From a virus, in IMG/VR virus record IMGVR_UViG_3300048861_000143, positions 89,078 to 149,800 of that record: a stretch of DNA of 60,723 nucleotides; one strand, given 5' to 3'. The position numbers were made by a program, and so were the translations under genes. Shown here in pieces: positions 2,174 through 56,420 of this stretch. The notes below the pieces were generated by a model. The model was not told where the DNA came from and searched no databases. It saw only the letters and a program-made list of their open reading frames with translations. Each line of letters starts with the position of its first letter. Positions within the stretch are counted from its first letter, which is position 1.

Positions 2174-2791
2174 TTAGGTCTCCTCTTGATCCGGTTCGGC
2201 GCGCTTCAGCGCCACCGCTTTCGTCCCAGGCGTGCTGCTTCGGTGCTGCGCTCGATCGGCGATCGCGTAGTGCGTCGCCAATACGTCCAGACAGCGCTGC
2301 AGCGCACGAGTGGCCTCCTCCCGATCTATTCCCATCTCGCCACCAAGCCACGCGTAGCTCTTGTCGTGCACAAGGGCCTCGGTCACGAAAGATGACGGCC
2401 TGATGTGGCCACAAGCCTTACGGGCTTCCGCGTCCGAGTCCAGGTAGCGCACCGCGGCCATGTGCCGACCAGCCGCTTCGTGCCGGTGATCGCTACCATC
2501 GTCGCCGGACGATCGAACGCTCGTGTCAAGGCTGCACCGGCTCTTGCCGATGATCCCGACCAGGTAATCCAGCACCCAGCGAACGCCGGCATCCCAGGCC
2601 TCAGCGCTGATCTTGTCCGCCCGTAGCAGCGCTTCGTGCTTGGGCAGCCTGCGATTTCCGCCGCCCTTCACATCTCGCCGGATGATCTCGTGCTTCTCGA
2701 GGAACTCCGCTGTTGGATACGAGGTAGACTCCTCATCGAGCGCCGGCATCTGAGGTAGTCTCAAGGCTCGGCCCTTCCCGGACTCAATCAT
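2174..2791 (-). CDS. DUF6456-like phage transcriptional regulator (last gene of the leftward early operon, Q-like position)
   Basis: LLRADKISAEAWDAG...LQRCLDVLATHY pattern with a C-terminal HTH; ATGA overlap with the DUF1643 stop. Confidence 0.5.
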   Translation of the reverse strand: MIESGKGRALRLPQMPALDEESTSYPTAEFLEKHEIIRRDVKGGGNRRLPKHEALLRADKISAEAWDAGVRWVLDYLVGIIGKSRCSLDTSVRSSGDDGSDHRHEAAGRHMAAVRYLDSDAEARKACGHIRPSSFVTEALVHDKSYAWLGGEMGIDREEATRALQRCLDVLATHYAIADRAQHRSSTPGTKAVALKRAEPDQEET

Positions 2792-3393
2792 GATCGTTCC
2801 GCAAATTTCCATGGTATTGGAGTCACCGCTTCTGGGATGAAATTCTTGCCCCGAGCCAGAGGATGCATCGGGACATTGTCCGGGGTCAGGCGAAGCACGT
2901 GCAGCTGATGACCCGCTTCCTGCAGCAGCCGACACATCGAGTGGGCGTGGCGCTGGAGGTTCCCCGGCAGGCGTCCGTGGGCGATTACCACAATCGCGGC
3001 GTCTCGAGCCATCTCCAACAGCGCCTGGTGGTTCCCGGGCCCGACCGGATCCTCCGTCTCGAGCAGGGCCTTAGGCGACACATGGCGGTATGCGCAGGAG
3101 TTTCCGATCCACTGGCCGCCGTAGCCCAGCCGCCGGGCGATCCTTGACGTTTTCATCACGGTCATATCGCCCGCCCTTTCGTCGGCCCCGGATGGGTTTG
3201 TCATGAAGAACGCGGCCAAGGGCCCATCTCCCCACCGGTAAAGAAGCTTGTACCGATACTCCTGAACAGGACCGTCGAACTCCGCCGAAACAGTCCAGTC
3301 GGCGGGGATCCTCGACAACCTGCGGCAGCCATGATCGTGACTGGCGCTGAGAGGTAGGGCCATTTGCTCACTCGCGGCGCTGGCGATCTGCAT
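2788..3393 (-). CDS. DUF1643 domain protein
   Basis: YRYKLLYRW, FFMTNPSGADE...DMTV, GNSCAYR, VIAHG and HPL motifs. Confidence 0.8.
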   Translation of the reverse strand: MQIASAASEQMALPLSASHDHGCRRLSRIPADWTVSAEFDGPVQEYRYKLLYRWGDGPLAAFFMTNPSGADERAGDMTVMKTSRIARRLGYGGQWIGNSCAYRHVSPKALLETEDPVGPGNHQALLEMARDAAIVVIAHGRLPGNLQRHAHSMCRLLQEAGHQLHVLRLTPDNVPMHPLARGKNFIPEAVTPIPWKFAERS

Positions 3394-3518
3394 CAGCCGC
3401 GCCAATGGCGATGGCCGTAGCCATGGTGATGCCCAAGCGGCTCGATCGGCGAGCGAACGACGCATCCGCCCAAGAGCAACAGACAGGCCGCAAGAGCGAT
3501 GACTATCCTCGTCTTCAT
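3393..3518 (-). CDS. small His-rich lipoprotein
   Basis: MKTRIVIALAACLLLLGGC lipobox; translationally coupled on both sides. Confidence 0.55.
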   Translation of the reverse strand: MKTRIVIALAACLLLLGGCVVRSPIEPLGHHHGYGHRHWRG

Positions 3519-3961
3519 CACAAGCCCCGTTTCAGCTGCTGCACGTAGTCGCAGTGCGGGCACATCGCGTCTTCCGCTCTCTCGGGCCTGAGAGACCGAG
3601 CGAGACGATGCCCATAGGCGCCGCAATCACAGCGGACCACCCAGCGCGCGGCCTTGCAGCCACCCGCCGGCTTGCCGTAGCCAACCACGACTAGGCGGCC
3701 AACCCGGTACCCCCGCCTAAACGGCACTGTTGATTCCCTGGGCCACGGTCCGATCGGCAAGGGTGTGTCTTGCCAAGCGTCCGTCGGCCTCAGCAATTTC
3801 TTCGCAGGTTCCCAGTGAACCCCGCGCCCGAGAACCCTAGACGCGGTTTTGTTGACCGGAACACTGGATATCAAACGATCGTTGATGGTCTGTCTCCTGT
3901 CTACTCGGTCAAGCCGGAGCCGCTTCCGCGCATCGTCGGATGGAGCAGGTCCAGCAGCCAA
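3518..3961 (-). CDS. phage Zn-binding protein (GRL-V...W-x-x-x-CDCG module seen N-terminal to HNH/AP2 proteins)
   Basis: GYRVGRLVVVG...WVVRCDCG...CPHC; start codon uncertain. Confidence 0.5.
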   Translation of the reverse strand: MAAGPAPSDDARKRLRLDRVDRRQTINDRLISSVPVNKTASRVLGRGVHWEPAKKLLRPTDAWQDTPLPIGPWPRESTVPFRRGYRVGRLVVVGYGKPAGGCKAARWVVRCDCGAYGHRLARSLRPERAEDAMCPHCDYVQQLKRGL

Positions 3962-4000
3962 AAGTTGCGTGAGTTTTGCGGCGGTATCGCAGCGAGAGCG

Positions 4001-4603
4001 TCAGCCAGCGCCCGAGACGCTTTGCTTTCCTCCCTGCACGTCGTGCACATCCGCGGAGACCCGGTCGTTGACCGCCTCGGGAAGCTTGTCTCCGTCGGTC
4101 GAGATCCGCACAGGACGCACTCCCTCCGACTGGGACGGATCACCTGTTACCAACTCCCCCTCGAAGACGGTCTCGGGTTGCAGCACAGGAACAGGAACGT
4201 CCGCTTCCACCCAGTGGAATACCTCCCCCTCCTGAAGCCCCTCGAGATAGACGCACTCGCGATTCCGCTTGTCGTCGCTCGCGTATTCAGACGTGCCGCC
4301 CGCACTCCAGGCGCCGGTATGATCGACTGCAACAGCTATGCGGACTCGGACGGTGCGGCGTGCCAATGGGGCGCTTCCGCCTGTATGAACATCCCCGGCT
4401 TTATATGCTCCGAGATAGATCATTGGGAGCTCGAGGGCGCCCTGGTGGGTCCAGACCCCAAAGGGCCCGCAATCCCATGTTCCAGCCCACCATCGGGCGA
4501 CGAACGTCGTCCCATCAAGTTGCAGAAGATGATATGTCCCGTCTGTTATTTCGGTAGGCCATGGGGCGACCATCCAGGGGTGGGCAGTTTTATCGTCAGA
4601 CAT
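4001..4603 (-). CDS. hypothetical phage protein
   Basis: ORF within the tightly packed minus-strand operon; SD GAGG upstream. Confidence 0.5.
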   Translation of the reverse strand: MSDDKTAHPWMVAPWPTEITDGTYHLLQLDGTTFVARWWAGTWDCGPFGVWTHQGALELPMIYLGAYKAGDVHTGGSAPLARRTVRVRIAVAVDHTGAWSAGGTSEYASDDKRNRECVYLEGLQEGEVFHWVEADVPVPVLQPETVFEGELVTGDPSQSEGVRPVRISTDGDKLPEAVNDRVSADVHDVQGGKQSVSGAG

Positions 4604-5130: not shown

Positions 5131-5441
5131 CGCTTGCACTCCTCCTCGATCATCGGCCAGTAGGTCGCGATCTCTTCCTCCATCAAGGCGAGCAGGCACA
5201 CCGGGCATGTGTGCGCCTTCTTCGTGCAGTCGCCGCTGTGCTCCGGGTGCTCAGCCACCCACGCCCGCAGCTTCGCTTCGTCGGTCTCCCAGGTTCGGAA
5301 CCAGAAGCGCCGGAACGCCTCCAGCGTGAGCGTCACGGGCTCCGGAATGACTGTCACCGATGCCCGGAGCGCGTTCATGAACGTGCGCTGCTCGGCCGAC
5401 GTCAGCTCTCTGGCACCGGCTGTTTCAGGAGTGTCCGTCAT
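5127..5441 (-). CDS. hypothetical protein with H/C-rich metal-binding motif
   Basis: HSGDCTKKAHTCPVC; ATGA overlaps. Confidence 0.55.
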   Translation of the reverse strand: MTDTPETAGARELTSAEQRTFMNALRASVTVIPEPVTLTLEAFRRFWFRTWETDEAKLRAWVAEHPEHSGDCTKKAHTCPVCLLALMEEEIATYWPMIEEECKR

Positions 5442-5860
5442 CGCTTCGCGCTCGGCCTAAGGTCGAAGTCGCTTGCTCCGAAAAACTCGATCCGCTTGAG
5501 TTCCCCGTCCGGGTGATACTCGAAGGCGCGGATGAGATAGCACTTGTCGGTGTGTCCCAAGCCGCAGAACGGGCACGATGATCGTCCCATGTCTCTGAGC
5601 CGGTTCTCCAAGATGTCCACGACCGGCGAAACTAGGTCCTCAGAGGAACCGGCAGCCTCGCCTCTTATCGCGACGACCTCTTCGAAGTGGCCGCCAAGGA
5701 ACTCGCTAAGCGGCCTTGCCCACACCCGGCCATCGTCGCCCGTGTAGATCACCAGCTCGGTCCCGGTGACGACGTCGCGCAAGCTCACGAGCTGAGCACC
5801 GCCCACCTCAGTGTACGGAACGCCTCGCCTCATCCAGCGGCGGCCAGAACGGTTCTCCAT
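5438..5860 (-). CDS. DUF1653-like domain protein
   Basis: ELVIYTGDDGRVWARPLSEFLGGHFEEV motif followed by CPFC. Confidence 0.55.
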   Translation of the reverse strand: MENRSGRRWMRRGVPYTEVGGAQLVSLRDVVTGTELVIYTGDDGRVWARPLSEFLGGHFEEVVAIRGEAAGSSEDLVSPVVDILENRLRDMGRSSCPFCGLGHTDKCYLIRAFEYHPDGELKRIEFFGASDFDLRPSAKR

Positions 5861-6099
5861 CACCTGCCTCCTCGCTTTGCAGCTCGCTCTTTGCCGGCCT
5901 GCGCCTTCCGCCCCCTTCTTTTCGCCTCTGCAATCTGGGACTCGATCATCCGCTCGTTGTGCAGCTTGAGCGCCGGATCCACCGGGACATCCGCCGTCGT
6001 CTCGGCTACGACTGCAGGGGCACATATCGTAACCTCCCCGCGCGCCAGTCGCGCCTCGAGCTGGGCGGCTTCATCCGGCGTCAGCGGTCGGCGGTTCAT
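5860..6099 (-). CDS. hypothetical protein
   Basis: Translationally coupled (TGATG) within the operon. Confidence 0.5.
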   Translation of the reverse strand: MNRRPLTPDEAAQLEARLARGEVTICAPAVVAETTADVPVDPALKLHNERMIESQIAEAKRRGRKAQAGKERAAKRGGR

Positions 6100-6233
6100 G
6101 CGCCCACCCGGCGGGGCCAGACGATCGTGTTGGGGTCCGGCGCTGGCAGATCGATCGCCACATGCCAGGGCCTTGTGAGCCACCGCAGAGCCCGCCTGAG
6201 CAGGTGTGAACCCTTGCTGGCCTGGAGCATGGC

Positions 6234-6545
6234 TCAGGCCTCCCTGGCGCGGCGCAGGGCCGCCAGACGGCGGTTCCGCTCCCGGTCGGACTGGTGCGGG
6301 AAGTACCGCCCCGGCTCAGCCTTAGGAGCCGGGTGGGTGGCGTCCCTCACCGTCTGCTGCTGACGGTGCTTCGCCAGAGCTCGCTCGGCCTTCCGACGCT
6401 CCGGGTTCACCGGACGGGGGTTCTTGCTGGCGCGGATCCGCTCCGCCAAGCCGTCCACCGGCGACGTCCGGCCGCTTTCGGCCCAAGCGTCACGAGCTGC
6501 GGCATGGTTTGCCTCGCGCACCTCGTCCATGGCCCGCAGCTTCAT
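6234..6545 (-). CDS. hypothetical basic protein
   Basis: ATGA overlap with the upstream gene; SD GGAG. Confidence 0.5.
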   Translation of the reverse strand: MKLRAMDEVREANHAAARDAWAESGRTSPVDGLAERIRASKNPRPVNPERRKAERALAKHRQQQTVRDATHPAPKAEPGRYFPHQSDRERNRRLAALRRAREA

Positions 6546-6754
6546 GACCGCGTCTCCTGGCTGGCCCGGTGAAGCGCTGTGCGAAGGATCTGCATTGGTC
6601 GGTGGTCTCCATCGTGCGGTCGGGCGCTCGTCGTGAGCACCCGGTTGATCAGGGGATGGGTGAATCTCAGGTGCTGGCGATCGGTGACCCTCACCGAAAA
6701 GCCGCGGCGCTTGGCCCACGCGACCAGCGCTCGCGAATCCTTGGTCAGCCGCAT
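6542..6754 (-). CDS. HicA-like dsRBD-fold protein
   Basis: WAKRRGFSVRVTDRQHLRFTHP...TTSARPHD matches the HicA-like pattern; TGATG coupling to DUF1376. Confidence 0.5.
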   Translation of the reverse strand: MRLTKDSRALVAWAKRRGFSVRVTDRQHLRFTHPLINRVLTTSARPHDGDHRPMQILRTALHRASQETRS

Positions 6755-7884
6755 CAGGCCGCCCGCAGCCGCCTGATCGAGCTGTCGAACATCATCAGGG
6801 TGGCTGGCGGACGGTAGTCCTCCTTCCTCGCCCAGTTCTCGATCAGGGAGATGATCTCGCGAGGCTTGAAGCCCTCGTTCAGCCAACCCTCGAGCACGGA
6901 CCAGTCTCCGGTCCAGGCGTGCGGAAGCCTCCCGACGTCTGCGACTTTCCGAGCAACCTGGTCGATCACGCACTGGCCGTCAGGCGAGTACCATCCACCG
7001 GTCTCCCGATCGGCCTCGAGCGTCGGCTTGAAGCCCGCGGACTGGCACCATCGCTTGATGCCCCTGGGGTCATTGGCATCGACCACGAGGCGGGGACCCG
7101 CAGGCTCAGGCGCGCCGGGACGGCGTCCCGTTCGGGACGTGATGCAGGCCGTGATCCAGGCAACTGGCTTCCTGGGAGGCTCGGCCGCCGTTTCGCGCAG
7201 GATGTCCAAGACCATCGCCGCGTCGTCCCCGGCTTGGTCCAGGAAGCGCGTGATCTGGGCTTTGACGCGGTCTCGCCCGGCCGGGAGCTCGATCTTGGTC
7301 AGCTTAGAAAGGAGCTGGACGCCCTCGCTGTAGCAGAGCTGCTTAGGGCTTGGCTTCGGCTCCTCGCCAAACAGGTTGGTTGGCCAATTCTCATGCGGCC
7401 GCGCAGCGCCCTGAAGCGAAGCTTCAGGAGTACCTTCTGTCTCTTCTGTCCTTTGTCTATTGTACGAAGGCAAAACGGTGGCAACCGGATAGCAATTGCC
7501 ATCTCCCGCTTGGCAATTGCTATCCTCTTGCCTTCCCTTTGCCTTACCCCATCGCTTTTGGCTGCCGCGCTTCCCGGCCGCGCTTCTCTCAGCGCTTATC
7601 GTCGCACGCTTTGCAAGCTCGGCATCGGCCCGCTTTTGATGGAGGAGGCCATCATCCGCGAGGGTGAAGAACGTCCGCAAAATCGGACCGATGCGGGACT
7701 GCCAGATATCGAGAGGGACCCTCGAGATCGCAGAGAGCATCGCATCGTCGTTGGGCAATGGGCCCTTGCGCCAGTAGTGCATCAGCAGGAGCAGGTATGG
7801 GCCGTGCTGATCATAGGTCAGGTGACCCGTATCGCCGATGTACTCGGCGACATAGAGCGGCATCCACTCATCGAAAGTAGCCAT
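6754..7884 (-). CDS. DUF1376/YdaU-family phage replication initiator
   Basis: N-terminal WMPLYVAEYIGDTGHLTYDQHGPYLLLLMHYW...GPLP...QKRADAEL; adjacent to dnaB. Confidence 0.8.
   Translation of the reverse strand: MATFDEWMPLYVAEYIGDTGHLTYDQHGPYLLLLMHYWRKGPLPNDDAMLSAISRVPLDIWQSRIGPILRTFFTLADDGLLHQKRADAELAKRATISAERSAAGKRGSQKRWGKAKGRQEDSNCQAGDGNCYPVATVLPSYNRQRTEETEGTPEASLQGAARPHENWPTNLFGEEPKPSPKQLCYSEGVQLLSKLTKIELPAGRDRVKAQITRFLDQAGDDAAMVLDILRETAAEPPRKPVAWITACITSRTGRRPGAPEPAGPRLVVDANDPRGIKRWCQSAGFKPTLEADRETGGWYSPDGQCVIDQVARKVADVGRLPHAWTGDWSVLEGWLNEGFKPREIISLIENWARKEDYRPPATLMMFDSSIRRLRAA
7430..7525. promoter_or_regulatory. putative lambda-like replication origin inside the initiator gene
   Basis: Perfect 15-bp inverted repeat GGATAGCAATTGCCA (7487-7501) / TGGCAATTGCTATCC (7511-7525). 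GCAA phased at 7470, 7481, 7492 and 7513. Adjacent pyrimidine-skewed tract at 7432-7460. Confidence 0.55.
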
Positions 7885-7945
7885 GCTGGCTCACTCCTTT
7901 CCACTCGGCCGTAGTGTCAGATTTGCTCCGATTGCAGATGCGCCA

Positions 7946-9424
7946 TCACCAACCACGCTCACGGAAGCGGGTCGCTGGCCCATCGAATCGCATGTATCGA
8001 TGCAGCGGCGCCTCGCCGCGGCGCACCTTGGGGATGATCAGCTCCGCCTGGTCGGCGAGCTCGTTGAACTTGGCCTGCCACTCAGCAAGCCGCGCCTGAA
8101 ACCCAGGCTCAGTCTCTCCGCTGTCGAGGTCCTTCACCGGCCGCTTCTGTTCGAAGTAGCGGACCTCTCGGTAGGGGAAGACGATCGCATCCGCAGCGTC
8201 CTCGATCTCGCCGCTCTCCCGCAGGTCGCGCATGGTCGGGCGATGATCGGGGCGGTCATCGACCTGACGACCTAGCTGCGACAGCAGCATGACGGTGGTC
8301 TCTCGGTCGCCGGCGAGATCCTTCATGGCGTAGGCGTTTGCGCCGACTGCCAGCCTCTTCTCCTTCACCCCCACCGGGTCGGGCATGAGCTGCAGGTAAT
8401 CGACAACCACGAGGCCAAGCTTTCGCCGCAGCTTCTGCTCCAGGCGTCGGCAATCGCGCGCGATGCTCTGCCAAGTCTGCCTGGGCTTCTGAATGACGTA
8501 GAGCTGCGCCTGTTCGAGCCGGCGCTGCGCCCGCTTGATCCGATCAGCCTCTTCGACGGTGTACGTTCCGCCCAGCAGAACCTTGACGGGCACTCGAGCT
8601 AGCGATGCAACGGCGGCTGCGCCCGCGTCTATCTTGTGCTCCTCGAGAGAGAAGTAGGCGACTGGCCGAGCAAGGTCGGGCTCGTCGTAGAACTGGCCCT
8701 GTGTGGTTTCGCCCTGCCCGCAGGAGACGTTGAGGGCGACCGTCCTTCCAAGCGAGGTCTTTCCCATGCTCGGCCGGCCGCCACACACGATGAGATGCGC
8801 GGGGCGGAGGCCGAGGATAGCGCTGTCCAGCGACGGGAGGCCCGTGGACGTTCCGGTTGCCCCGGGGTTCTCTCGAGCAAACTCCCCCTCTTCTAGGGCA
8901 AGCCGGACGCATTCACCGATCGTCACTGGCCCGTCCTGGGATGACCCCACGCCGGCCGTGATGGCAAAGAGCTTCTGCTCGGCCTCCTCCAGGAGCGCCG
9001 ACGCATTCACATCGGGCGAAGCCTCAAAGGCCTTGGCCGCGGTATCGGACCCGAAATCGATCAACTGGCGGCGCAGCCATGCCTCATAGACGGCACGCCC
9101 GTACTCTCCCGTGGTGATGATGCTGACCATCGCCGACAGGAGAGTTGCGATGTATGCCGGCCCTCCTACTTCGGCGAGTTGGCCGGACCCCTCGAACATC
9201 GTCTTGAGCGTGACAGCATCAACGAAGCCGCCGGCCTCGATCTTTTTCGAGATCGCTTCGTAGATCACACCATGGACGCGATCGGCGAAGTGCTCCGGCC
9301 GAAGAAAATCAGCAACGCGCTCGTACGCGCTGTTGTTCGAGAGGATCGCGCCAAGCAACGCTTGCTCGGCCTGTACGTTTGACGGCGGCAACCTGAACGA
9401 GAAATCGGTAAGCGCATCCGGCAT
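7946..9424 (-). CDS. dnaB: replicative DNA helicase
   Basis: PPSNVQAEQALLGAIL N-domain, Walker A GRPSMGKT, FSLE, VVDYLQL, LSQLGR, DLRESGEIEDAAD. Confidence 0.93.
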   Translation of the reverse strand: MPDALTDFSFRLPPSNVQAEQALLGAILSNNSAYERVADFLRPEHFADRVHGVIYEAISKKIEAGGFVDAVTLKTMFEGSGQLAEVGGPAYIATLLSAMVSIITTGEYGRAVYEAWLRRQLIDFGSDTAAKAFEASPDVNASALLEEAEQKLFAITAGVGSSQDGPVTIGECVRLALEEGEFARENPGATGTSTGLPSLDSAILGLRPAHLIVCGGRPSMGKTSLGRTVALNVSCGQGETTQGQFYDEPDLARPVAYFSLEEHKIDAGAAAVASLARVPVKVLLGGTYTVEEADRIKRAQRRLEQAQLYVIQKPRQTWQSIARDCRRLEQKLRRKLGLVVVDYLQLMPDPVGVKEKRLAVGANAYAMKDLAGDRETTVMLLSQLGRQVDDRPDHRPTMRDLRESGEIEDAADAIVFPYREVRYFEQKRPVKDLDSGETEPGFQARLAEWQAKFNELADQAELIIPKVRRGEAPLHRYMRFDGPATRFRERGW

Positions 9425-9508
9425 GATTTTAGTTTCCTCCGCCTAGAAAGGCGCGCCAGCCGAGGCTGTGCTCGGGGCTGGAAGTTTCTGGATGTCGTTG
9501 GCCATACC

Positions 9509-10066
9509 TCACTCCCACCCGGGAATGAGTCGCCCGACTTGGCGGGTGATGGTTGCAATCGCTTTCTGATCGATGAGCTTGACCACCACATCGGGGTGAT
9601 ACTTCGCCATGCGCCGCAGCTTGGTTTTGCTGCGAGCGTCCATGTATCCCTTCACTTCGTGGTACTCGAACGAGCCAGAGAGAAGCTCGACGTCGAAGTC
9701 GATCAGATAGCTTCGGACACCACGCCTGATCTGCTCGAACCAGAACGTGGTCTTCTCGTGCGCCCAGGAGCGGATCAGTTGTCGATCCTGCTGCCACTGG
9801 AGGAACCGAGCGTAGTTCGCCTCGGCCTTCGACCGGGCAAAGATCCTGGTTCCGCCGATCTCACGCCATCCCGCACGCCAAGTGCCGATCATTGGATTCA
9901 CGACACCGCGGGGAGAGCCTGCGGACCGCGCGGAATGCTTGACCTCAGCCGACAGAGCGACGAAATCTGCGGCGGACATCCGGTCCTGCTTAGTGGCTTC
10001 CTGGATGGCGGCCTCGGTGCGAACGGGGCCGCCGCCCACCCGAATCTCAGTTGCTCGTCGTGACAC
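9509..10066 (-). CDS. DUF1064-like PD-(D/E)xK nuclease
   Basis: FARSKAEANYA...SYLIDF...YHEVKG motif. Confidence 0.7.
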   Translation of the reverse strand: MSRRATEIRVGGGPVRTEAAIQEATKQDRMSAADFVALSAEVKHSARSAGSPRGVVNPMIGTWRAGWREIGGTRIFARSKAEANYARFLQWQQDRQLIRSWAHEKTTFWFEQIRRGVRSYLIDFDVELLSGSFEYHEVKGYMDARSKTKLRRMAKYHPDVVVKLIDQKAIATITRQVGRLIPGWE

Positions 10067-10243
10067 TACCTACCTCCCGCGAGGTATTGGGGTAGACCGC
10101 GCTGAATTTTATACTTGCCGATTCGTCGTTCGTTACCATACAAGGCAGACGAGCGAGTAATTCGTTAATATGAGCGCGCTCGATCGAAGCGCCAAAAAGG
10201 GGAATTTCAAGTGATCGCCCTGAGTCTCTGCTCGACGAGATCA

Positions 10244-10498
10244 TCAAGCCGCCTCCTGCATCTCAAATCGGACTGGGTGTCCGTTCTCTCTGCAGTGCCG
10301 CTGGATGGTCTCGATGGTGCGGAGGGTCAGTCGGCCCTCCTTGATCTTCTGGACGATGTGCCCGTCGTTGAGGACCATCTTGCCCCAGCGGGAGGGCGGG
10401 ATCTTGCGTTGAGCGCAAACCGCCTCAATCGCCGCCAGCAGCGCAACGCGGATCAGGCGGTCGGGATCGTCATCGGGATGGGAGCGGTGTTCAGCCAT
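10244..10498 (-). CDS. Cro-like repressor
   Basis: Short HTH (IPPSRWGKMVLNDGHIVQKIKEGR.TLRT); first gene of the leftward operon, divergent from the repressor. Confidence 0.7.
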   Translation of the reverse strand: MAEHRSHPDDDPDRLIRVALLAAIEAVCAQRKIPPSRWGKMVLNDGHIVQKIKEGRLTLRTIETIQRHCRENGHPVRFEMQEAA

Positions 10499-10505
10499 GC
10501 CCGCT

Positions 10506-10534
10506 CATTTAGTGGTAAAATTACCACCGCACAA
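10506..10534 (-). promoter_or_regulatory. PR-like promoter with operator in the spacer
   Basis: Minus strand TTGTGC-17bp-TAAATG. The spacer contains the palindrome GTGGTAAAATTACCAC (10512-10527). Confidence 0.65.
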
Positions 10535-10599
10535 GAGGGAATAATCAGATTGGCCTCAAAGCCGTGCTCCGTGGGAAAAAGTCGCGGCGGACCACTGTG

Positions 10600-11157
10600 A
10601 TGAGAGTCATGTCAGAGGCAGATGATCGGCACCCGCTTGCGGCTGAGGTTGAGCGGCGCATGGCGGCGGCAGGCTTCGAGAACAACATGCGCGGGCTATC
10701 GCGCGCAGCCGGCCTGGGGCCGACCTATGTCCGGGACCTTCTTACTCCTGGCCGGAAGAACAATCCCAAGCTCGGGGAGATCTACCGCCTTGCGGATGCG
10801 CTCGGCTGCACGGTGACGGAACTGATGTCTCCGATCCTGCGCAAGAAACCGCAGCGGACCCCACAGCAGCTGCGGGCCGCCCGCTTCCGGGCGGCACGTT
10901 GGGCAGTGTGGGGTGACGACGTCGGACTTGCCGCCAGGTGGCTCGAGATCGAGCCGGATCGGCTGAGAAGGATCGAGCGGGCAGAAGAGCCGCTGCCTGA
11001 CGACATACTCAGGAACTTCTGTCTCCTGACGTCGTGCCCTCTCGCATGGGTGGAGGCTGGCCAAATGGAGGGTATGCCGGACCGGATGTTGGCCCGTGCG
11101 GTTTATTCGGATCCGACTTTGGTCCCGGATCCCGATCAAGACCCAAATCCTGACTGA
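10600..11157 (+). CDS. CI-position repressor with two XRE HTH domains and no S24 peptidase
   Basis: HTH1 MRGLSRAAGLGPTYVRDLL...RLADALGCTVTELM; HTH2 LAARWLEIEPDRLRRIER...CPLAWVEAG. Confidence 0.7.
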   Translation: MRVMSEADDRHPLAAEVERRMAAAGFENNMRGLSRAAGLGPTYVRDLLTPGRKNNPKLGEIYRLADALGCTVTELMSPILRKKPQRTPQQLRAARFRAARWAVWGDDVGLAARWLEIEPDRLRRIERAEEPLPDDILRNFCLLTSCPLAWVEAGQMEGMPDRMLARAVYSDPTLVPDPDQDPNPD

Positions 11158-11545
11158 ACGCTGCAGGCACTCGTTTGCGCATATACCTTACCTTTGACGG
11201 CCTCTTGGCATTTCGAGAACGGCGCCGTGACGGAACAGCGCGGGAACAGTCATACGAATGTAGCGCCGTGGTCGGTAACGTGAAAAAATTTGCAAGCCCA
11301 ACCAATTGACCGTTCCGGATATCCTACGACCGTCTGTGAAAATGGCAGCCTAACTGACTCTGGTGTCGATATCATCGTACGAATCACAGACTGGCGAGAT
11401 CTCGTAGTTACAATAGCCTGCTGTCGCGCAAACTTTTGAGATCCGAAGAAGCGCGCCCGGATTAACGATTTTATCACGGGCCATTGACTGGTGCCGCGGC
11501 CGCCACCATTGCGGTCGGGCAACTCTGTCATCTTGATCCTGATGT

Positions 11546-11899
11546 TCACATCGGCGTGTTGGGCGTGCCCGGTGGGGAGCGTTGTGGGTGTTCGCTCAGG
11601 ATGCTCCGCACCTCTTCTACGAGGCTGGTGAGATTCTCATCGTAGAACGCGACCAGCTTTTTCGTGGGATATACGAGAGTGCGCCGTGCCCCATTGGGGG
11701 CGGGCTTTAGTACGACGAGCCCGTAGGTTGCGAGCAGTTCCAATTCGGACCGGCAGGTCGGGAACGTTCTCCCGAGCCAGGCCGTCTCGCGGTGAAGCTC
11801 TGATACGGACAGCACCCTGCCTTCAATGAGCGCGATCATGCATCGTCGCACCAGCGCGGCTCGCTGCAGGCTGGGTTTGTGCTGACGCCCTCCGCCCAA
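11546..11899 (-). CDS. winged-HTH (MarR-like) protein
   Basis: LSVSEL...ELELLATYGLVVLKPAPNGARRTLVYPT wing motif; start uncertain. Confidence 0.5.
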   Translation of the reverse strand: MGGGRQHKPSLQRAALVRRCMIALIEGRVLSVSELHRETAWLGRTFPTCRSELELLATYGLVVLKPAPNGARRTLVYPTKKLVAFYDENLTSLVEEVRSILSEHPQRSPPGTPNTPM

Positions 11900-12064
11900 G
11901 AGGACCCCTAGGCGCCGATTCCATGCCTGTGCAATCGGCGTCCAGATCGCGAGAGCCTCAATCAGAGAGGCGGGGATATCGGCCTGAGTGGCTTCAACGG
12001 TCAGACTCAGTTGCTTTGCTCCCTTTCAGACGTGCCGGGCGGAAGGCTTCCGGCGTAATATCAA

Positions 12065-12116
12065 TTGGGGTTTTTACCATCACGTCATTGACTGATGGTA
12101 TTTTTACCACTATATC
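12065..12116 (+). promoter_or_regulatory. PL-like promoter with two operators
   Basis: TTGACT(12088)-17bp-TATATC(12111). Operator ATGGTATTTTTACCAC (12095-12110) lies in the spacer; a degenerate copy TTGGGGTTTTTACCAT is at 12065-12080. Confidence 0.7.
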
Positions 12117-12158
12117 AGGTGGCAGACATCTTCAACAGTAAAGCAGGCAGAGAAGCGT

Positions 12159-12383
12159 ATGACCTGGACGATTAGGGCCAAAATGGTCTCGGCAGCTGCG
12201 GCGGGCTTGTTCGCCTTGGGGATGATCTCGGCCCTGACAGCCGCCGCTTTCCTGGATGGAAATGCGAGAGTCGCCTTCCTGGTGATCGCTGTCGCTGAAG
12301 GGCTCGCGGTCCCGCTGCTGTGTTGTGACGACGGTACGGGACCCGAGCCGCATCAAGTGATGCCGCGGCAGGCGCTTCGTTAG
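12159..12383 (+). CDS. small membrane protein
   Basis: Two hydrophobic segments; first ORF after the PL-like promoter. Confidence 0.5.
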   Translation: MTWTIRAKMVSAAAAGLFALGMISALTAAAFLDGNARVAFLVIAVAEGLAVPLLCCDDGTGPEPHQVMPRQALR

Positions 12384-12567
12384 TCTTGGACGAAATGCAA
12401 ACCGCATCAGTCTGGTCCAACGATTAGCCAGGCTGGAGAGTGTCGCGCGGTAGCGCGGGGTGGCCAACCATAAAATTCCGCCCGAACGATTACCCATGAA
12501 TCAATACTGCGAAAACTGGATCTGTCGCGTTACTTGCGACTGCGTTCGCAATCAGCACGGAGGTTGA

Positions 12568-13545
12568 ATGCCAATTTTGCCCATGCCGGCCACCCGCGAG
12601 GAGTGGCTGGAGATGCGCAGGAATTACGTAGGGGCTAGTGAATCCGCCGCTTTGCTTGGAATGGGCGCGGGTTTCTCCAAGTCGCCGCTGTCACTCTATC
12701 TCATCAAGCGCGGCGAGCTGGTCCCGCAGGACGAGGACAACGAGCGGATCAGAGAGGGCGTCAGGCGAGAGAACGAGGTTGCGCTGTCCTCGAGCGCCCT
12801 GGCCGGACGAAAGCTGCTGCCGGCTGTGTACGCCGTGCACGATCGGGTGCACGGCATGGCGGCCAGCCTCGACAGGGTGGTGCTCCCAAGCGAGGCGGAC
12901 ATCGAGCAGGGTCGGATTGGCCCGGGCGCCCTCGAGTGCAAGATCGTCTACAGCGATGCATACCGCCGCGATTGGCGGGATGGGCCTCCGGCCTACTATC
13001 TGATCCAGAACCAGCACCAGATGGCTTGCTCTGGATACCTCTGGGGCGAGATCGCCGCGATCGTCGTGAACCCGAAGACCGGCCAGGACGAGGGGGTGCC
13101 GAGGTTCACATACGCCGCGCACCCTGAGCTCATCGGGCGCATTGAGGAGGCGGTGGCAGAGTTCTGGGACCGGGTGCGCCTGGGCATCCCACCCGACCCG
13201 GACGGCCACAAGAGCACTCGAGATGCTCTGCGCGCGATGTTCCCCGCCCCGCAGGACGAGGAAGTCGACCTTCAGTTCAGCAACTCCCTGCCCATGTTGG
13301 CGCGCCGATATGCGCGGATGACGGCGCTCGAGGCGAGGCTGAAGAAGAGCAAGCAGCAGATCAGCAATGACTTTCGTGCGGCGATGGGGACGGCCAAGCG
13401 CGCTCGCCTCGCCGGGAAGATCACGATCACCAGGACCGTCTCCGAGGACACGCCAGACCGCCCTGCCCTCCCCGGAGAAATCATCAAGGGCCGCAAGGGC
13501 TCTGACCAGATCCGAGTGAATGTTCCGAAGGATTCGACCCGATGA
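12568..13545 (+). CDS. YqaJ-family (lambda-exonuclease-like) recombination nuclease
   Basis: EEWLEMRRNYVGASESAA, ASLDR, LECK, YYLIQNQHQM. Confidence 0.9.
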   Translation: MPILPMPATREEWLEMRRNYVGASESAALLGMGAGFSKSPLSLYLIKRGELVPQDEDNERIREGVRRENEVALSSSALAGRKLLPAVYAVHDRVHGMAASLDRVVLPSEADIEQGRIGPGALECKIVYSDAYRRDWRDGPPAYYLIQNQHQMACSGYLWGEIAAIVVNPKTGQDEGVPRFTYAAHPELIGRIEEAVAEFWDRVRLGIPPDPDGHKSTRDALRAMFPAPQDEEVDLQFSNSLPMLARRYARMTALEARLKKSKQQISNDFRAAMGTAKRARLAGKITITRTVSEDTPDRPALPGEIIKGRKGSDQIRVNVPKDSTR

Positions 13546-44748: not shown

Positions 44749-44785
44749 ACACCAATCACTGACCAGTGGAGCACCGAGAAGCACT

Positions 44786-45394
44786 ATGAGCAGCACAATC
44801 GCGAACAACTTCGAGCTGAACAAGGGTGATCAGTTCATCGTCGCCCTGGACATCTCCGGGTCCATGCAAATGAAGGACTGCCCGGGCAACGCCAGCCGGT
44901 TCTCCTACGTGCTGGAGACCATGGAGGTGTTCATCAGCGAGGCGTCGAAGTGGGATCCTGATGGCGTGTCCTTCTATGCCTTCAACAACGAGGTCCAGGA
45001 GTTCCCGGACGTCGCGTCGACGGAGGCGCTCCACGAAACCATCGGACGGCTGCGTCCGGGCGGCGGGACTGCCACCCATCGGGCGATTTCGGCCGCCTAC
45101 AGGGAGCACAAGCTCAAGGGCAGCGAGCAGACCTTCCTCCTCCTTTTCACCGATGGTGAGCCGTCCGATCGGCAGGCGGTGAAGCAGGCGATCGTGGATA
45201 TCACCAACGACGTGAAGGACGAGAAGGAGTTCCGGATCTGCATCCTGACCGTCGGTGCCAGGACCCCGGAGCTGAGCGCGTGGCTCTCTGATCTGGACGA
45301 CAACCTGACCGAGGCGAAGTACGACATCGTCGACATCGAGAAGCTCGAAGACGTCGATTTCGAGCGCGCGGTCGCCAACGCCATCGAGGGCTGA
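44786..45394 (+). CDS. vWA domain protein (Ter-associated)
   Basis: MIDAS motif DISGSM, GGT.T, FTDGEP. Confidence 0.85.
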   Translation: MSSTIANNFELNKGDQFIVALDISGSMQMKDCPGNASRFSYVLETMEVFISEASKWDPDGVSFYAFNNEVQEFPDVASTEALHETIGRLRPGGGTATHRAISAAYREHKLKGSEQTFLLLFTDGEPSDRQAVKQAIVDITNDVKDEKEFRICILTVGARTPELSAWLSDLDDNLTEAKYDIVDIEKLEDVDFERAVANAIEG

Positions 45395-45460
45395 ACCAAG
45401 CCGGCCGGCTGTCCGGCGACGTAGCCGGCGGCCGGCTCTTAGGAAGGTGGAAGAGAGCCT

Positions 45461-46165
45461 ATGAGTGCAGTCCTCGTCCTGTCCGTGCTCCAGATCACGT
45501 GGATCGACATCCTGCTGTCTGGGGACAACGCCGTTGTCATTGCCATGGCCTGCAGGTCCCTCCCTCCCCGCAAGCGGGTGGTCGGGATCACGCTGGGCGT
45601 GATAGCGGCGTTTATCCTCCGGGTCTGCTTTGCAGCTGCGATCGCCTACCTTCTGGCGGTGCCCTACCTGAAGCTGGTCGGGGGAGCGCTCCTGCTGTGG
45701 ATCGCTGTGAAGCTCGTGCGCGGCGAAGACGAAGATGGCGGCCCGACCAAGGAGGTGACCGGCCTTATCAGGGCCGTCCTGACGATCGCGGCGGCGGATG
45801 CCGTCATGAGCCTCGACAACGTGGTAGCCATCGCCGCGGCATCCCACGGCAATGACGTCCTGTTCGTGCTGGGCCTGCTGGTATCCATGCCGCTCATGAT
45901 CTTCGGAGCATCGCTCATATCAGCCGCCGTCTCGAGGTGGCCGATCATCGTCTGGGCTGGTGGAGCGCTCCTGGGCTGGATTGCCGGCGAGATGGTGCTG
46001 TCGGACCGTCACGTCATCGAGGCGGTCTACATGGCGGTGCACGACGTCCGCGTGCTTGCCTCCTATGCGGCCGCGGCGTTCTGCGCCCTGCTGGTTGTGG
46101 CCTTAGGCCAGATTGCGAGGGGCTTTCGCCAAGCCCCCTCCCCTGCCCCGGAACCGGCTCCATGA
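45461..46165 (+). CDS. TerC family membrane protein
   Basis: IDILLSGDNAVVIAMA, ADAVMSLDNVVAIAAA. Confidence 0.9.
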   Translation: MSAVLVLSVLQITWIDILLSGDNAVVIAMACRSLPPRKRVVGITLGVIAAFILRVCFAAAIAYLLAVPYLKLVGGALLLWIAVKLVRGEDEDGGPTKEVTGLIRAVLTIAAADAVMSLDNVVAIAAASHGNDVLFVLGLLVSMPLMIFGASLISAAVSRWPIIVWAGGALLGWIAGEMVLSDRHVIEAVYMAVHDVRVLASYAAAAFCALLVVALGQIARGFRQAPSPAPEPAP

Positions 46166-47777: not shown

Positions 47778-48119
47778 TCGGCTAGCTAGCGGGCTATCCT
47801 GCTAGCATCAAAGGCTTAGAGCGATATGCACCGCTGCCGGCGTGTGTATTGAGAGCCTGTCGCCACATGGCCGTGTGATCTGCCAGCCGCCTCAGCTCCC
47901 ATGCGGCCTTGCACGCAGCAGGGTTTGAGGGCAACAGTCGCTCCATCCCGAGTGCTGGGATTACCGCTCGCCCGCCGGATCGTGGCCCAAATGGCGGGCG
48001 AGCGGGGCTCTCAGATTGGTGGAAAATTTGCCACCGCGCTGATCTTAAAGCTAAGCTGCCGTCGCGCAGCGGGCCCAGCACTCCCGCTCGCTCTTGAGCA
48101 CTCGGGAAGGGCACTCATC

Positions 48120-48785
48120 ATGTGGACGATCGTCCTAGCCGCCAGCAAAGGCGGCGCGGGGAAGACCACGCTCGCAGGTCATCTGGCCGTTGAGGCAGCG
48201 AGGTGCGGGGTCTCGCCGGTACATGTCATCGACGCTGACGAGCAGGGCAGTCTAGCGAGATGGTGGAATACGCGGGCAGATGAACAGCCAGGCTTAGCGT
48301 CTGTCGGGCAGGGTGGCTTGCGGCGAGCTCTCTCGGGGCTTCGGCAGATGGGCTCGAAGCTGGTGATCATCGATACGCCTGGGAGCCACAACCCGGGGCT
48401 GAAAGGGATCGTGGCCGAGGCCTCGCTGGTGATCGCCCCGGTGATCCCGTCGCCGCATGACCTGGCGGCAATCTATCGAACCATCAGCTTGGCCCAGGAC
48501 GCGGGTAAGCCGATCATGTTCGTCCTCAACAACGCATCATCGACCGGCAAGCTGACCAAGCAGGCGGTGGAGCTCCTGCGCCTGGTCACGCCGGGGCGGG
48601 ACGACAAGCCTTGCATCATTGCGTCGCGTCAGGACTTCCGGGCGGCCATGGTCGGAGGCCACACCGTCCAGGAGCTGAACACCAAGGGGGCGCAGAAGGC
48701 GGCCGAAGAGATCCATCAACTATGGACTGAGGTGCACTCGAGGCTGAAGGAGGTCGGCGATGGCGAACAAGCCTCAGCCGCTTAG
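48120..48785 (+). CDS. parA: ParA (type Ib) partition ATPase
   Basis: KGGAGKTT, IDADEQGSL, IIDTPG, PS.HDL. Confidence 0.9.
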   Translation: MWTIVLAASKGGAGKTTLAGHLAVEAARCGVSPVHVIDADEQGSLARWWNTRADEQPGLASVGQGGLRRALSGLRQMGSKLVIIDTPGSHNPGLKGIVAEASLVIAPVIPSPHDLAAIYRTISLAQDAGKPIMFVLNNASSTGKLTKQAVELLRLVTPGRDDKPCIIASRQDFRAAMVGGHTVQELNTKGAQKAAEEIHQLWTEVHSRLKEVGDGEQASAA

Positions 48786-54272: not shown

Positions 54273-54920
54273 ATGCGCAAGACCATCTGGAATGGAGAAT
54301 TGGATCAGGCGATCAGGGATTTCCGCTCTCAGGGCAAGACCTGGGACACGATCGCTGATCTAATCGGCTTCGATGTCGTCCAGGTTAAACGAAGAGCCAG
54401 GGACATCGGGGTCGCTACAGGCCGCCTCAACCACGGCAGGATAACCGGAGAGCAGATCGCGGCAGGTTATCCAATCAAGCCACGCCAAGAAGCTCGCCGC
54501 CGAGCCACGATTAAGGCCGAGCTTCCGTCAAAATACGGGATTAAGTATCGCCTCAGGCTGGGCATGGATCCCGAAGAAGCCAGAACCACACCTAAGTTCA
54601 TGCAGCGCAACGGCAAGCGAGTTCAGCCAGCACCTGAGCTGGACGAGGCAATCCGACAGCTCAGGGATGAGAAGAAAATGTCGTGGCAGGCGATTGCCGA
54701 GAGTGTTGGTGTGGGCCGCGCAACGGTCATCAAGCGCGCGACCGAACTTGGCATACGTGTTGGAGCGAAGAGGGTGGAACATCCTATGTCTAAGGGGGTA
54801 ATCACGCCGGCAGGACGTTTCAGCAGCCTTGGTGAATCAGCGCGGCGCCTAGGCATCACACGCGGAGCGGCCAAATACCGGGCCGACAACGGCACTGACG
54901 GATGGCGTTATGAAGACTGA
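54273..54920 (+). CDS. multi-HTH DNA-binding protein with a NUMOD-type tail
   Basis: Two ELD.AIR..R..K.W..IA...G....V.(K/R)RA..(I/L)G repeats; C-terminal HPMSKGVITPAGRFSSL...GWRYE. Confidence 0.6.
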   Translation: MRKTIWNGELDQAIRDFRSQGKTWDTIADLIGFDVVQVKRRARDIGVATGRLNHGRITGEQIAAGYPIKPRQEARRRATIKAELPSKYGIKYRLRLGMDPEEARTTPKFMQRNGKRVQPAPELDEAIRQLRDEKKMSWQAIAESVGVGRATVIKRATELGIRVGAKRVEHPMSKGVITPAGRFSSLGESARRLGITRGAAKYRADNGTDGWRYED

Positions 54921-54977
54921 CCCAAAGCGAGGGCCGCGTGGCAGCGCTCCAGCCCGAGATCGAGCGGATCCTGTTCG

Positions 54978-55193
54978 ATGACTGACCCCGCCTCCAGCCC
55001 GGCGCTTCTACCTGAGGTAGGAGAAGTCTGGCGCTGGCACGACGGAGCCAAGCTCACAATCACCGAGGTCGATGAGATCCTGATCTGCTGGGATCAGGAA
55101 GAATTGGAAAGCTCGCAGCGCATGGTCGGCCTCGCGTCTCATGGAGCATGGCTGGAGTGGGTCTCGTCGGGGTCGCTGGTGCGACAGCACTGA
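54978..55193 (+). CDS. hypothetical protein
   Basis: PEVGEVWRW motif. Confidence 0.4.
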   Translation: MTDPASSPALLPEVGEVWRWHDGAKLTITEVDEILICWDQEELESSQRMVGLASHGAWLEWVSSGSLVRQH

Positions 55194-55206
55194 TCATCAG
55201 CGTACC

Positions 55207-55428
55207 GAGTCGGTGCATAGTAGGCGGGGAATCGAGTGAGCCCGGGATGCGGGCTGATCCGGAAATGCCCCCAGGCCGAGCGAGGAAAGCAGTGATAGAT
55301 TCGGGGAAACGGGTGAGGCGCCCAACCAGATTTCAACGACTTAGCTGAGTTATCCCGAGGAATCGAGTGAGGGATCTAATACTAGGGAATCACTAATACC
55401 TTCCTAGTAGCTGCGCTCACTGCTTTCC
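55207..55428. repeat. oriV iterons upstream of repA
   Basis: GGAATCGAGTGAG (55228, 55359), GGAAAGCAGTGAT (55284), GGAAACGGGTGAG (55305), and inverted CTCACTGCTTTCC (55416). AT-rich segment at 55375-55410; IHF-like TTTCAACGACTTA. Confidence 0.7.
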
Positions 55429-55469
55429 CCGGAGACATCGCCGGCCCGAACGTGCACATGAAGTAGCTT

Positions 55470-56420
55470 ATGGGGAAAGTGCACGAACTCATTGTGGCGA
55501 AAGGCCGCCTAGGCGCGATCGATGCTGGTTGGGATCGGGCTGCGGTCGAGACAGCCGCCAATTACCTCGCCGATGAGGATAGCGGCCTGGGGTTCGCTTA
55601 TAGCGGCTGGGCACAGTGCGCCCTCCCCCACAAGAGGCTCGCGGATGATGCCCCCTGGGGCATCGTGAGCGAGAAGGTGAAGCTCATGGTGGAGCCGGGT
55701 CGGCGGCAGATCGTTGCCGCAGATGGTAGCCAGTCCTTCGAGCATGTCGGAGTGCCCTTCGGGAGCCATGCGAGGCTCATCCTGCTCTATCTCCAGACGG
55801 AGGCCCTGCGGACCGGCAGGCGCGAAGTGGAGCTGGGCGGCTCGATGCGCGCCTGGCTCGGGCGAGTTGGCATCGCCGCGGGCGGTATGTCTGGCAAAAG
55901 CGTCCGCGACCAGGGAGAGCGGATCTCGAGATGCAAGCTGACATTCGACATTGCGACCGGGACGCGGAGTTCTGGGCTGATCCAGCAGACCATAGTCGAT
56001 AAGGCGCTGTTTCTGGAGGCTGATGAGTCGTCGCGACAGGGCCGGCTCTCCCTGGAAACGGCCAAATTGTCAGAGGGCTTCTTCGAGCAGCTCCGCAAGC
56101 ATCCGGTTCCTCTGGAGGAGGCCGCGATCAAGGCGCTCTCGAACAACGCGCCAGCCCTGGATGTTTATCTCTGGCTCGCCTACCGTCTTCACGCTCTGCG
56201 GGCGGACCGAACCGTATCCTGGCCCGCACTCAAGGCTCAGTTCGGGACAGGCTTCTCGAAGCTCTACCACTTCAAGCACAAGTTCCCCGGGACCGTGTCA
56301 CTCGCCACCGCGGTCTACCCGGACGCTCAGGTCGAGTTTACGGACGACGGTCTCGTTCTGAAGCCTTCCCGGCCGGCCGTTGCTCCGAAGCTGATCGCCA
56401 TAGGTCGGAGCGCTCACTAG
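55470..56420 (+). CDS. repA: plasmid replication initiator, RepA_C (IncW-like) family
   Basis: QCALPH, GVPFGSHARLILLYLQTEA...EVELG.S, LSEGFF..L..HPVP, ALDVYLWLAYRL. Confidence 0.88.
   Translation: MGKVHELIVAKGRLGAIDAGWDRAAVETAANYLADEDSGLGFAYSGWAQCALPHKRLADDAPWGIVSEKVKLMVEPGRRQIVAADGSQSFEHVGVPFGSHARLILLYLQTEALRTGRREVELGGSMRAWLGRVGIAAGGMSGKSVRDQGERISRCKLTFDIATGTRSSGLIQQTIVDKALFLEADESSRQGRLSLETAKLSEGFFEQLRKHPVPLEEAAIKALSNNAPALDVYLWLAYRLHALRADRTVSWPALKAQFGTGFSKLYHFKHKFPGTVSLATAVYPDAQVEFTDDGLVLKPSRPAVAPKLIAIGRSAH

Follow-up and report, generated by a model that had tools for sequence, protein, structure and literature searches.

A circular 149.6-kb replicon that probably joins a contractile-tailed phage-plasmid to a complete conjugation system

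Introduction

Can one natural replicon carry what it needs to leave its host both as a virus and by conjugation? This question is raised by a stretch of 60,723 nt (hereafter the window), which corresponds to positions 89,078-149,800 of the IMG/VR virus record IMGVR_UViG_3300048861_000143. An initial annotation, made from the letters of the window, had read its positions 2174-56420 as a candidate conjugative phage-plasmid, in which a phage early region runs into a type IV secretion system (T4SS), a relaxase and a plasmid replicon. The two ways of spreading are treated as alternatives: the phage strategy is lethal, high-yield and receptor-limited, and conjugation is benign, low-yield, contact-dependent and of broad host range. 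According to a 2025 review, complete conjugation machinery has been found in no phage-plasmid, and none of the classical phage-plasmids of the P1, N15 and SSU5 groups is conjugative (PMC12282955).

A single contig of 149,800 bp contains the window as its right-hand 60.7 kb. The remaining contig, its closure and assembly continuity, and its relatives all support the reading proposed from the window: with a probability that we estimate at about 0.7, this is the complete circular 149.6-kb replicon of a phage-plasmid with genes for a full conjugation system.

Results

The contig is one closed circle

The first and last 157 nt of the contig match at 156 of 157 positions, which leaves a unit of 149,643 bp without host flanks. 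The record is classed as linear by IMG/VR and CheckV (CheckV completeness 97%), a label that IMG/VR gives because of the one mismatch in this overlap. In addition, a 148-aa open reading frame (ORF) of the minus strand (MPDDKTA...), a member of an array of small genes at the left end that have an N-terminal word in common, is full only across the junction (window 60335-60723 plus contig 158-215). Circularity, which the initial annotation had left to be checked, is supported by these two observations: the contig closes on itself. The VirB4 protein is listed on a metagenome contig of exactly 149,800 bp, and the record is therefore the whole metagenome contig and not a provirus trimmed from a chromosome. 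The GC content is 0.60-0.66 across the whole window, which contains no tRNA; no rRNA, tRNA or housekeeping genes were seen. Neither the PLSDB plasmids nor the GenBank phages gave a megablast match to the window. Closure without host flanks and a plasmid as nearest cultured relative (see below) are consistent with an extrachromosomal state, although a circular assembly could also stem from virion DNA or from an excised molecule.

A single false join would leave a linear contig with its phage genes to the left and its plasmid genes to the right, and the initial annotation had pointed to a possible misassembly between 17.0 and 18.1 kb of the window. In the Logan assembly, however, one contig of 106,677 nt covers window 6001-26000, and thus this junction, with no differences, no gaps and a flat depth of 21.9. 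The stretch is contained in one soil-metagenome run, probably the source sample. By arithmetic, the Logan contig would extend from about contig position 44,700, where a 252-nt tandem repeat breaks 31-mers, to 1,576 nt beyond the right end. With this extent, capsid, portal, terminase, early region, T4SS and repA would share one contig. Since a second assembler crosses the site in one piece, the two outer ends of the contig join up as well and relatives show the same linkage of phage genes to a T4SS, we give practically no weight to a chimera of a phage contig and a plasmid contig joined at about 17-18 kb.

A complete set of virion, packaging and lysis genes lies outside the window

The initial annotation had stated that virion genes are not in the window. 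This is correct, and all of them lie elsewhere on the same contig. A search of the remaining contig for terminase, portal, capsid and tail genes revealed a full contractile-tail virion, packaging and lysis set on the minus strand of contig 5.3-64.5 kb (Table 1). About 40 ORFs of this block are intact, five of them 1013-1706 aa long, with a high GC content at third codon positions, and the genes for TerS and the endolysin are intact. Genes for virion structure, DNA packaging and lysis, by which the phage side of a phage-plasmid is judged, are thus present together, with an insert in the TerL gene as the caveat (see Discussion).

The window encodes a complete conjugation system

The run from virB1 to virB11 and virD4 proposed from the letters was recovered in order by Pfam. 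VirB2, VirB3 and VirB5 score 1-2 bits below the Pfam cut-offs, yet stand in the expected order, and the VirB7 slot between virB6 and virB8 is filled by a 64-aa lipoprotein with the lipobox LGAC (24027-24221). VirB4 matches CagE_TrbE_VirB (E 2e-29) and has relatives with 46-54% identity. The proposed relaxase is also there, as a 1530-aa TrwC/MOBF protein whose 3-His motif is intact (FHH...DPHRHAH, aligned to H150/H161/H163 of R388 TrwC). An origin of transfer (oriT) had been proposed as well; an inverted repeat with 8-bp arms in the expected intergenic region is a candidate for it. Following the logic of CONJscan, the element thus has an HUH-type relaxase, VirB4 with a type IV coupling protein, and the accessory proteins VirB1-3 and VirB5-11, all in order along 10 kb. 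The minus strand also matches the Rfam family of suhB/MmgR small RNAs (RF00519; 45.9 bits, cut-off 41) at window 41261-41334, a site flanked by the relaxase region and the ssb operon.

Plasmid replication, partition and recombination

The repA gene named by the initial annotation encodes a RepA_C replication initiator and is flanked by iterons, five copies of 16 nt (7 matches in the window against 0.94 expected). For parA, a ParA-like ATPase is indeed encoded in the window, but the gene directly before repA (54273-54920) codes for a helix-turn-helix (HTH) protein. Plasmid replication initiation and partition are therefore both represented, by RepA_C with its iterons and by the ParA-like ATPase.

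The initial annotation had seen no integrase, insertion sequence or att site. This holds inside 2174-56420, but a tyrosine recombinase gene, the only one on the contig, lies 3.6 kb to the left of the window (contig 84426-85433), and a TnpB gene lies at window 57441-58967. No serine recombinase was found on the contig. The tyrosine recombinase is internal and not at a module border. Around it no convincing att-like repeats were detected (the longest word in common with other regions has 17 nt and flanks a single gene), which does not fit an ordinary prophage bounded by attL and attR, as the initial annotation had considered. Its homologues occur on the Rhodovastum plasmid RHOApd and on a conjugative plasmid of Acetobacter (both described below), so that in each of these three contexts the recombinase gene is carried by a plasmid; its more likely role would be to resolve dimers. 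The TnpB gene, on the plus strand near the closure point, encodes OrfB_IS605, Cas12f1-like TNB and HTH_OrfB domains and is not accompanied by tnpA.

The backbone resembles a plasmid of Rhodovastum

The closest named relative of the portal protein is encoded on plasmid RHOApd of Rhodovastum atsumiense G2-11 (NZ_OW485605.1; 114.9 kb), a member of the Acetobacteraceae. The two replicons have 16 syntenic virion proteins in common at 30-53% identity, among them portal (51%), protease (53%), capsid (52%), sheath (50%) and baseplate proteins (31-45%). RepA (45% over 287 aa), ParA (31%) and the tyrosine recombinase (36%) are also related. RHOApd is thus a partial parallel, with contractile-tail genes on a replicon that resides as a plasmid in a cultured strain. 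It differs in having neither VirB4 nor TrwC (MOB-suite types it as non-mobilizable), in a TerL of another family (PBSX type) and in being 35 kb smaller. In its own right, RHOApd carries a full virion module, RepA, ParA and defence genes (HerA, Z1 domain, Vsr/Dcm) and looks like a phage-plasmid; the papers searched were not found to describe it as one.

On a conjugative-plasmid-like contig of Acetobacter conturbans, RepA, a homologue of the recombinase and a T4SS stand side by side, and this RepA is only 30% identical to that of the element studied here. Because the virion block, RepA, ParA and the recombinase are common with RHOApd, which lacks a T4SS, the backbone is that of an Acetobacteraceae phage-plasmid, and the T4SS and relaxase are the addition. 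Of the two alternatives left by the initial annotation, the comparison with RHOApd favours a phage-plasmid that gained conjugation over a conjugative plasmid that adopted a phage switch. The nearest relatives of VirB4 in genomes are found in metagenome-assembled genomes (MAGs) of Acetobacteraceae (43-52% identity), and the tetranucleotide similarity of the element to Acetobacteraceae contigs is 0.86-0.91. The host is probably a soil bacterium of this family. Among 401 sampled Acetobacteraceae genomes, a close portal was present only in Rhodovastum and one other.

Two relatives combine phage genes with a homologous T4SS

Relatives with the same synteny were looked for, as the initial annotation had suggested, and two contigs combine a homologous T4SS with phage tail or head genes. 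The clear relative is a JGI contig of 124.7 kb (Ga0642624_00206; 3300072491), whose gene order recurs in contigs of two sister samples. It encodes, in order, a protein resembling the tape measure protein, Phage_GPD, base V, W and Baseplate J; FN3, GH26 and beta-helix fibres; ERF, Gp157 and an HTH repressor; GcrA, an HTH_36 initiator and a primase-helicase; and then a VirB T4SS, VirD4 and GH5. Its tail and baseplate proteins are syntenic with those of our element (32-50% identity), and the identities are 37-62% for the T4SS proteins, 48% for VirD4, 46% for GH5 and 53% for ERF. Its portal is absent from the 120 portal-search matches listed.

The second relative is a more distant viral contig of 106.8 kb (IMG/VR 3300031472_000015, here G001; CheckV 100%). 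It has TerL and portal genes at its right end and a major head gene at its left end, a module that wraps the contig ends, together with sheath, tape measure and baseplate genes. Its 80-101 kb stretch holds genes for a T4SS, VirD4 and a MOBF relaxase that are homologues of those in our element (VirB4 46%, VirB11 53%, relaxase 37.5%). Neither a PF00589 recombinase nor a CbiA-type ParA was found on G001. By tetranucleotide signature, the T4SS part of each element matches the element that carries it: the correlation is 0.93-0.94 within our element (T4SS against early regions) and 0.90-0.91 within G001, whereas the two T4SS parts correlate with each other at 0.82. This measure cannot tell one element from two elements of one host. 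Taken together, the protein comparisons suggest that the association of phage genes with this T4SS is old enough to be common with a relative at about 45-50% protein identity.

The remaining members of the T4SS clade are found in plasmid-like contexts or in contexts like those of integrative and conjugative elements (ICE). A glycanase gene directly 3' of virD4 is a feature of the clade (GH5 in three elements, GH16 in one), and a glycoside hydrolase in this position may be a "matrix-clearing" accessory that belongs to the mating apparatus throughout the clade. Two relatives of VirB4 carry an insertion of the LAGLIDADG_3 (intein) type, and in one of them the VirB4 N-domain is a separate ORF. An ENA contig of 81 kb with an "Sf6_terminase" match near a related T4SS was rejected as a further example: it is plasmid-like, with transposon and exopolysaccharide genes. 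A scan of IMG/VR with a single VirB4 protein gave no match, an alignment-based VirB4 scan gave three loci, and in 50,697 GenBank phage records VirB4 matched only three unannotated faecal fragments, at 22-28% identity. A metagenome scan returned mostly short contigs and no added context.

Sequences shared by the phage and plasmid halves

Two kinds of sequence occur in both halves of the element. Residues 292-644 of the esterase-GH5 protein encoded at the end of the T4SS run are 61% identical (371 aa) to residues 9-378 of a 1467-aa protein that ends the virion block (contig 5341-9744), and its esterase part has 31-33% identity to segments of two giant tail proteins (including that of contig 21048-25844). 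In addition, the palindrome GTGGTAW-N2-WTACCAC is found at the repressor switch and at promoter-like sites before YqaJ/ERF, before a DarB-like gene (contig 78 kb) and before the ssb/ter operon (4 sites in the window against 0.02 expected). The DarB-like anti-restriction protein, of 1700 aa, combines an Eco57I-type methylase with an SNF2 helicase (contig 78426-83528), and the palindrome lies 350 nt upstream of its gene. This gene and the DpdA-like gene are anti-restriction cargo and would be of use in either entry route.

A hairpin with the apex GCGGTAATCGGGCCGC was also observed, in nine copies ahead of early or anti-defence genes (contig 69113-78405). A fuzzy search placed this leader hairpin only at contig 69-78 kb, with no copy in the T4SS or plasmid part (a direct-repeat search was uninformative), and it therefore gives no link between the two halves.

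The early region

Pfam and PHROGs confirmed the DUF1376 initiator with DnaB, and YqaJ with ERF, as proposed from the letters (Table 1). The cro/repressor switch stands as regards its layout, with divergent HTH and 84-aa genes around a 16-bp palindrome, but no S24 peptidase domain was detected in the 197-aa HTH protein, and the 84-aa gene in the cro position matched no Pfam or PHROGs family. A regulator in the position of Q was not supported by Pfam or PHROGs at 2174-3465, where DUF1643 is the only credible family match and 2174-2935 has no credible match. A homologue of the Ros/MucR regulator adjoins a T4SS in a plasmid-like contig of an Acetobacteraceae MAG.

Table 1. Features of the element. 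Positions refer to the window unless marked as contig positions.
Feature	Position	Strand	Evidence or remark
DpdA-like DNA-modification (7-deazaguanine) gene, phage early/anti-restriction region	147-1238	+	Pfam PF23859 E 3e-19
DUF1643 protein, end of leftward early operon	2788-3465	-	Pfam PF07799 E 1.5e-27
DUF1376 phage replication initiator/primosomal protein	6754-7884	-	PF07120 E 1e-18; phrog_3992 E 3e-27
DnaB-type replicative helicase	7946-9424	-	DnaB_C E 1e-53, DnaB E 6e-26
Holliday-junction-resolvase-like early protein	9509-10066	-	phrog_190 E 1e-13
84-aa gene in cro position, first in leftward early operon	10244-10498	-	Position and divergent orientation only
Operator-like palindrome GTGGTAAAATTACCAC between divergent switch genes	10513-10526	.	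Perfect 16-bp palindrome
HTH repressor-like protein, 197 aa	10564-11157	+	Pfam HTH_31/HTH_26; phrog_4 transcriptional repressor E 2e-6
Second operator copy, within TTGACT-N17-TATATC promoter-like site, ahead of rightward early operon (YqaJ/ERF)	12096-12109	.	
YqaJ exonuclease	12568-13545	+	PF09588 E 5e-16
ERF annealase	13542-14606	+	PF04404 E 7e-10
C5 cytosine DNA methyltransferase	14603-16564	+	PF00145 E 6e-15
Ros/MucR regulator	16518-17042	+	PF05443 E 2e-26
HTH_31/HTH_3 regulator directly 5' of virB1	17481-17975	+	Pfam E 2e-10
MPF_T-type T4SS operon: VirB1 (SLT), B2-B6, B7-like lipoprotein, B8-B11	18067-28062	+	Pfam matches in order
VirD4 type IV coupling protein	28220-30121	+	T4SS-DNA_transf E 1e-59, TraG-D_C E 6e-16
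Esterase-GH5 glycanase (secreted), last gene of T4SS run	30675-32948	+	Pfam Cellulase E 9e-32
MOBF TrwC relaxase with SF1 helicase and C-terminal primase-like part, 1530 aa	33419-38011	-	TrwC E 1e-35, AAA_30 E 5e-22
Candidate oriT hairpin AAACGCGC-N8-GCGCGTTT	38582-38605	.	Divergent intergenic region upstream of relaxase operon; position only
Third strong operator copy (arms GTGGTAT/ATACCAC) over TTGAAG-N17-TATAAA promoter-like site, ahead of ssb/ter operon, plasmid half	42613-42626	.	
SSB, TerB, VWA and TerC genes (leading-region/cargo block)	43490-46165	+	Pfam
ParA-like partition ATPase	47901-48785	+	Pfam CbiA/MipZ; 31% identical to RHOApd ParA
Iteron cluster CGGGGAATCGAGTGAG and variants: three direct copies, one inverted; fifth copy at 56413	55225-55431	.	
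RepA_C plasmid replication initiator	55470-56420	+	PF04796 E 3e-21; 45% over 287 aa to RHOApd RepA
Terminal overlap	60567-60723	.	Same as contig bases 1-157 bar one base
Packaging and head: TerS, TerL, portal, head protease, major head protein	contig 5.3-64.5 kb	-	
Tail: sheath, tube, tape measure, baseplate (GPD, V, W, J)	contig 5.3-64.5 kb	-	
Several tail or fibre proteins of 1,000-1,700 aa	contig 5.3-64.5 kb	-	Esterase and glycanase domains
Lysis: GH108 plus PG_binding_3 endolysin; DPBB lytic transglycosylase	contig 5.3-64.5 kb	-	
TerL insert	contig ~61261-61299	-	GGSAGGG / L(stop)RPAAQSAGH(stop)S / KTW

Discussion

Several known systems resemble parts of this element. The phage-plasmids of the P1, N15 and SSU5 groups (PMC7969092) likewise have virion, lysis, lytic replication and plasmid replication and partition genes on one extrachromosomal replicon; the element studied here adds a complete MPF_T T4SS, a type IV coupling protein and a MOBF relaxase, and shows no sequence kinship to them by megablast. 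The conjugation genes have the same content and order (VirB1-B11 and VirD4) as those of IncW R388 and Agrobacterium VirB/AvhB, and the N-terminus of the relaxase aligns to structure 1omh of R388 TrwC with the 3-His motif kept. The identity to R388 is remote (phmmer E ~1e-5 to TrwC). In contrast to those systems, the relaxase has a C-terminal primase-like part here, a glycanase ends the T4SS run and the replicon that hosts it is a phage genome. The Escherichia coli plasmid p1002-1, called a "conjugative phage-plasmid" (SegMantX preprint, 10.1101/2025.03.14.643293), also unites conjugative and phage-plasmid functions on one replicon. However, it is interpreted as having arisen when two recognisable E. 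coli replicons fused, both of which still occur on their own, whereas here the modules are interleaved, have motifs and paralogues in common, and occur in the same combination in relatives at 45-50% identity. In the Hodor megaplasmids (PMC12934698) and the Streptococcus phage-ICE tandems (PMC13651849), a phage genome lies on or beside a conjugative element; each such prophage brings an integrase or transposase with it and excises as a circle of its own, whereas here neither a separable prophage nor an integrase at a border nor att repeats were found, and RepA is of the phage-plasmid type. What appears to be new is a phage-plasmid with a complete conjugation system, common to at least one clear relative and one more distant element.

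Several points weigh against this reading. All of the evidence is computational. The sole TerL gene carries an in-frame insert of 39 nt with two TGA codons inside Walker A, so that packaging either needs recoding or is dead; skipping the insert restores GGSAGGGKT (GxxxxGKT). The genome is 30% larger than RHOApd and might exceed the capsid capacity of the lineage. CheckV and IMG class the record as linear, and the tyrosine recombinase would be compatible with an integrated state. The oriT is a candidate by position, and the operator-like copy 70 nt before virB1 is weak and degenerate (about 4 mismatches in 16) and is not relied on. The Logan contig comes from an independent assembler but not from independent data, the run being probably the source sample. 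For the 124.7-kb relative, the virion genes covered are those of the tail and baseplate. The broken TerL and the size of 149.6 kb against 114.9 kb for RHOApd could be explained if a former phage-plasmid were turning into a plain conjugative plasmid, having become too large or lost its motor after gaining a T4SS and relaxase of 20 kb plus cargo, with virion genes that are relics or serve as a tailocin-like or gene transfer agent-like particle. P1-derived lineages indeed lost phage functions and gained oriTs after growing (2025 review). We nevertheless consider such a decay unlikely, given the intact ORFs of the virion block with their high third-position GC, the exact frame of the TerL insert, whose skipping restores the motif, the intact endolysin and TerS genes, and the two relatives that retain both gene sets.

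Another origin would be a recent cointegrate, or an ordinary prophage in an unrelated conjugative plasmid as in the Hodor megaplasmids or E. coli p1002-1, with parts that are still separable. The contig does have a tyrosine recombinase, the T4SS relatives are mostly in plasmid- or ICE-like contexts, and plasmid-like contigs of Acetobacteraceae have MucR and a recombinase next to their T4SS. But this recombinase is off the module borders and lacks att-like repeats, RepA and ParA group with the phage-plasmid RHOApd (RepA 45%) rather than with that of the conjugative plasmid of Acetobacter (30%), genes of plasmid type and of phage type interleave, both halves contain the operator motif and GH5 paralogues, and the combination recurs in a relative at about 48% identity, all of which makes a cointegrate quite improbable. 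We give still less credence to a T4SS that moves effectors, takes up or releases DNA, or aids phage infection without self-transfer, which would make the element an ordinary phage-plasmid with accessory secretion. In favour of such a role are the secreted glycanase tied to VirD4 throughout the clade and the candidate status of the oriT. Against it stand the full-length MOBF relaxase adjoining the T4SS, with an intact HUH-type 3-His motif, a helicase and a primase-like part, as well as an SSB-containing block typical of conjugative leading regions; the relatives in the clade are moreover conjugative-plasmid-like and have TrwC-Toprim relaxases.

We therefore prefer a phage-plasmid that also encodes a conjugation system. 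A complete virion kit, a plasmid kit and a T4SS on one element could allow it to spread as virus particles as well as through contact between cells. In its quiescent state, RepA with the iterons and ParA would maintain a low-copy plasmid, and the recombinase would resolve dimers. The HTH repressor may bind GTGGTAW-N2-WTACCAC at four promoters, namely those of the switch, the recombination operon, the DarB-like gene and the ssb/ter operon. Exit could then take two forms. In one, the relaxase would nick oriT near 38.6 kb and a single strand would pass through the T4SS; in the other, lytic replication by DUF1376-DnaB would be followed by packaging and lysis. The related esterase/GH5 depolymerase domains of the tail proteins and of the T4SS operon end might clear the same exopolysaccharide for both routes, perhaps a cellulose- or acetan-like matrix, as is typical of Acetobacteraceae. 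More tentatively, and with doubts that exceed our confidence, the element may represent an old, undescribed and truly bimodal lineage of Acetobacteraceae phage-plasmids, in which lytic development and the conjugative leading region are under the control of one repressor/operator circuit, the tail and the mating apparatus are equipped with the same depolymerase domains, and the element chooses between lytic particles and host-sparing transfer.

Because virus and plasmid classifiers force elements of this kind into one class, they are probably under-counted in soil metagenomes. If true, their double equipment would explain how some phage genomes could cross receptor barriers. If both machines are intact in a natural lineage, the lethal and the benign strategy can coexist in one genome, which would provide a system for testing the trade-offs between them.

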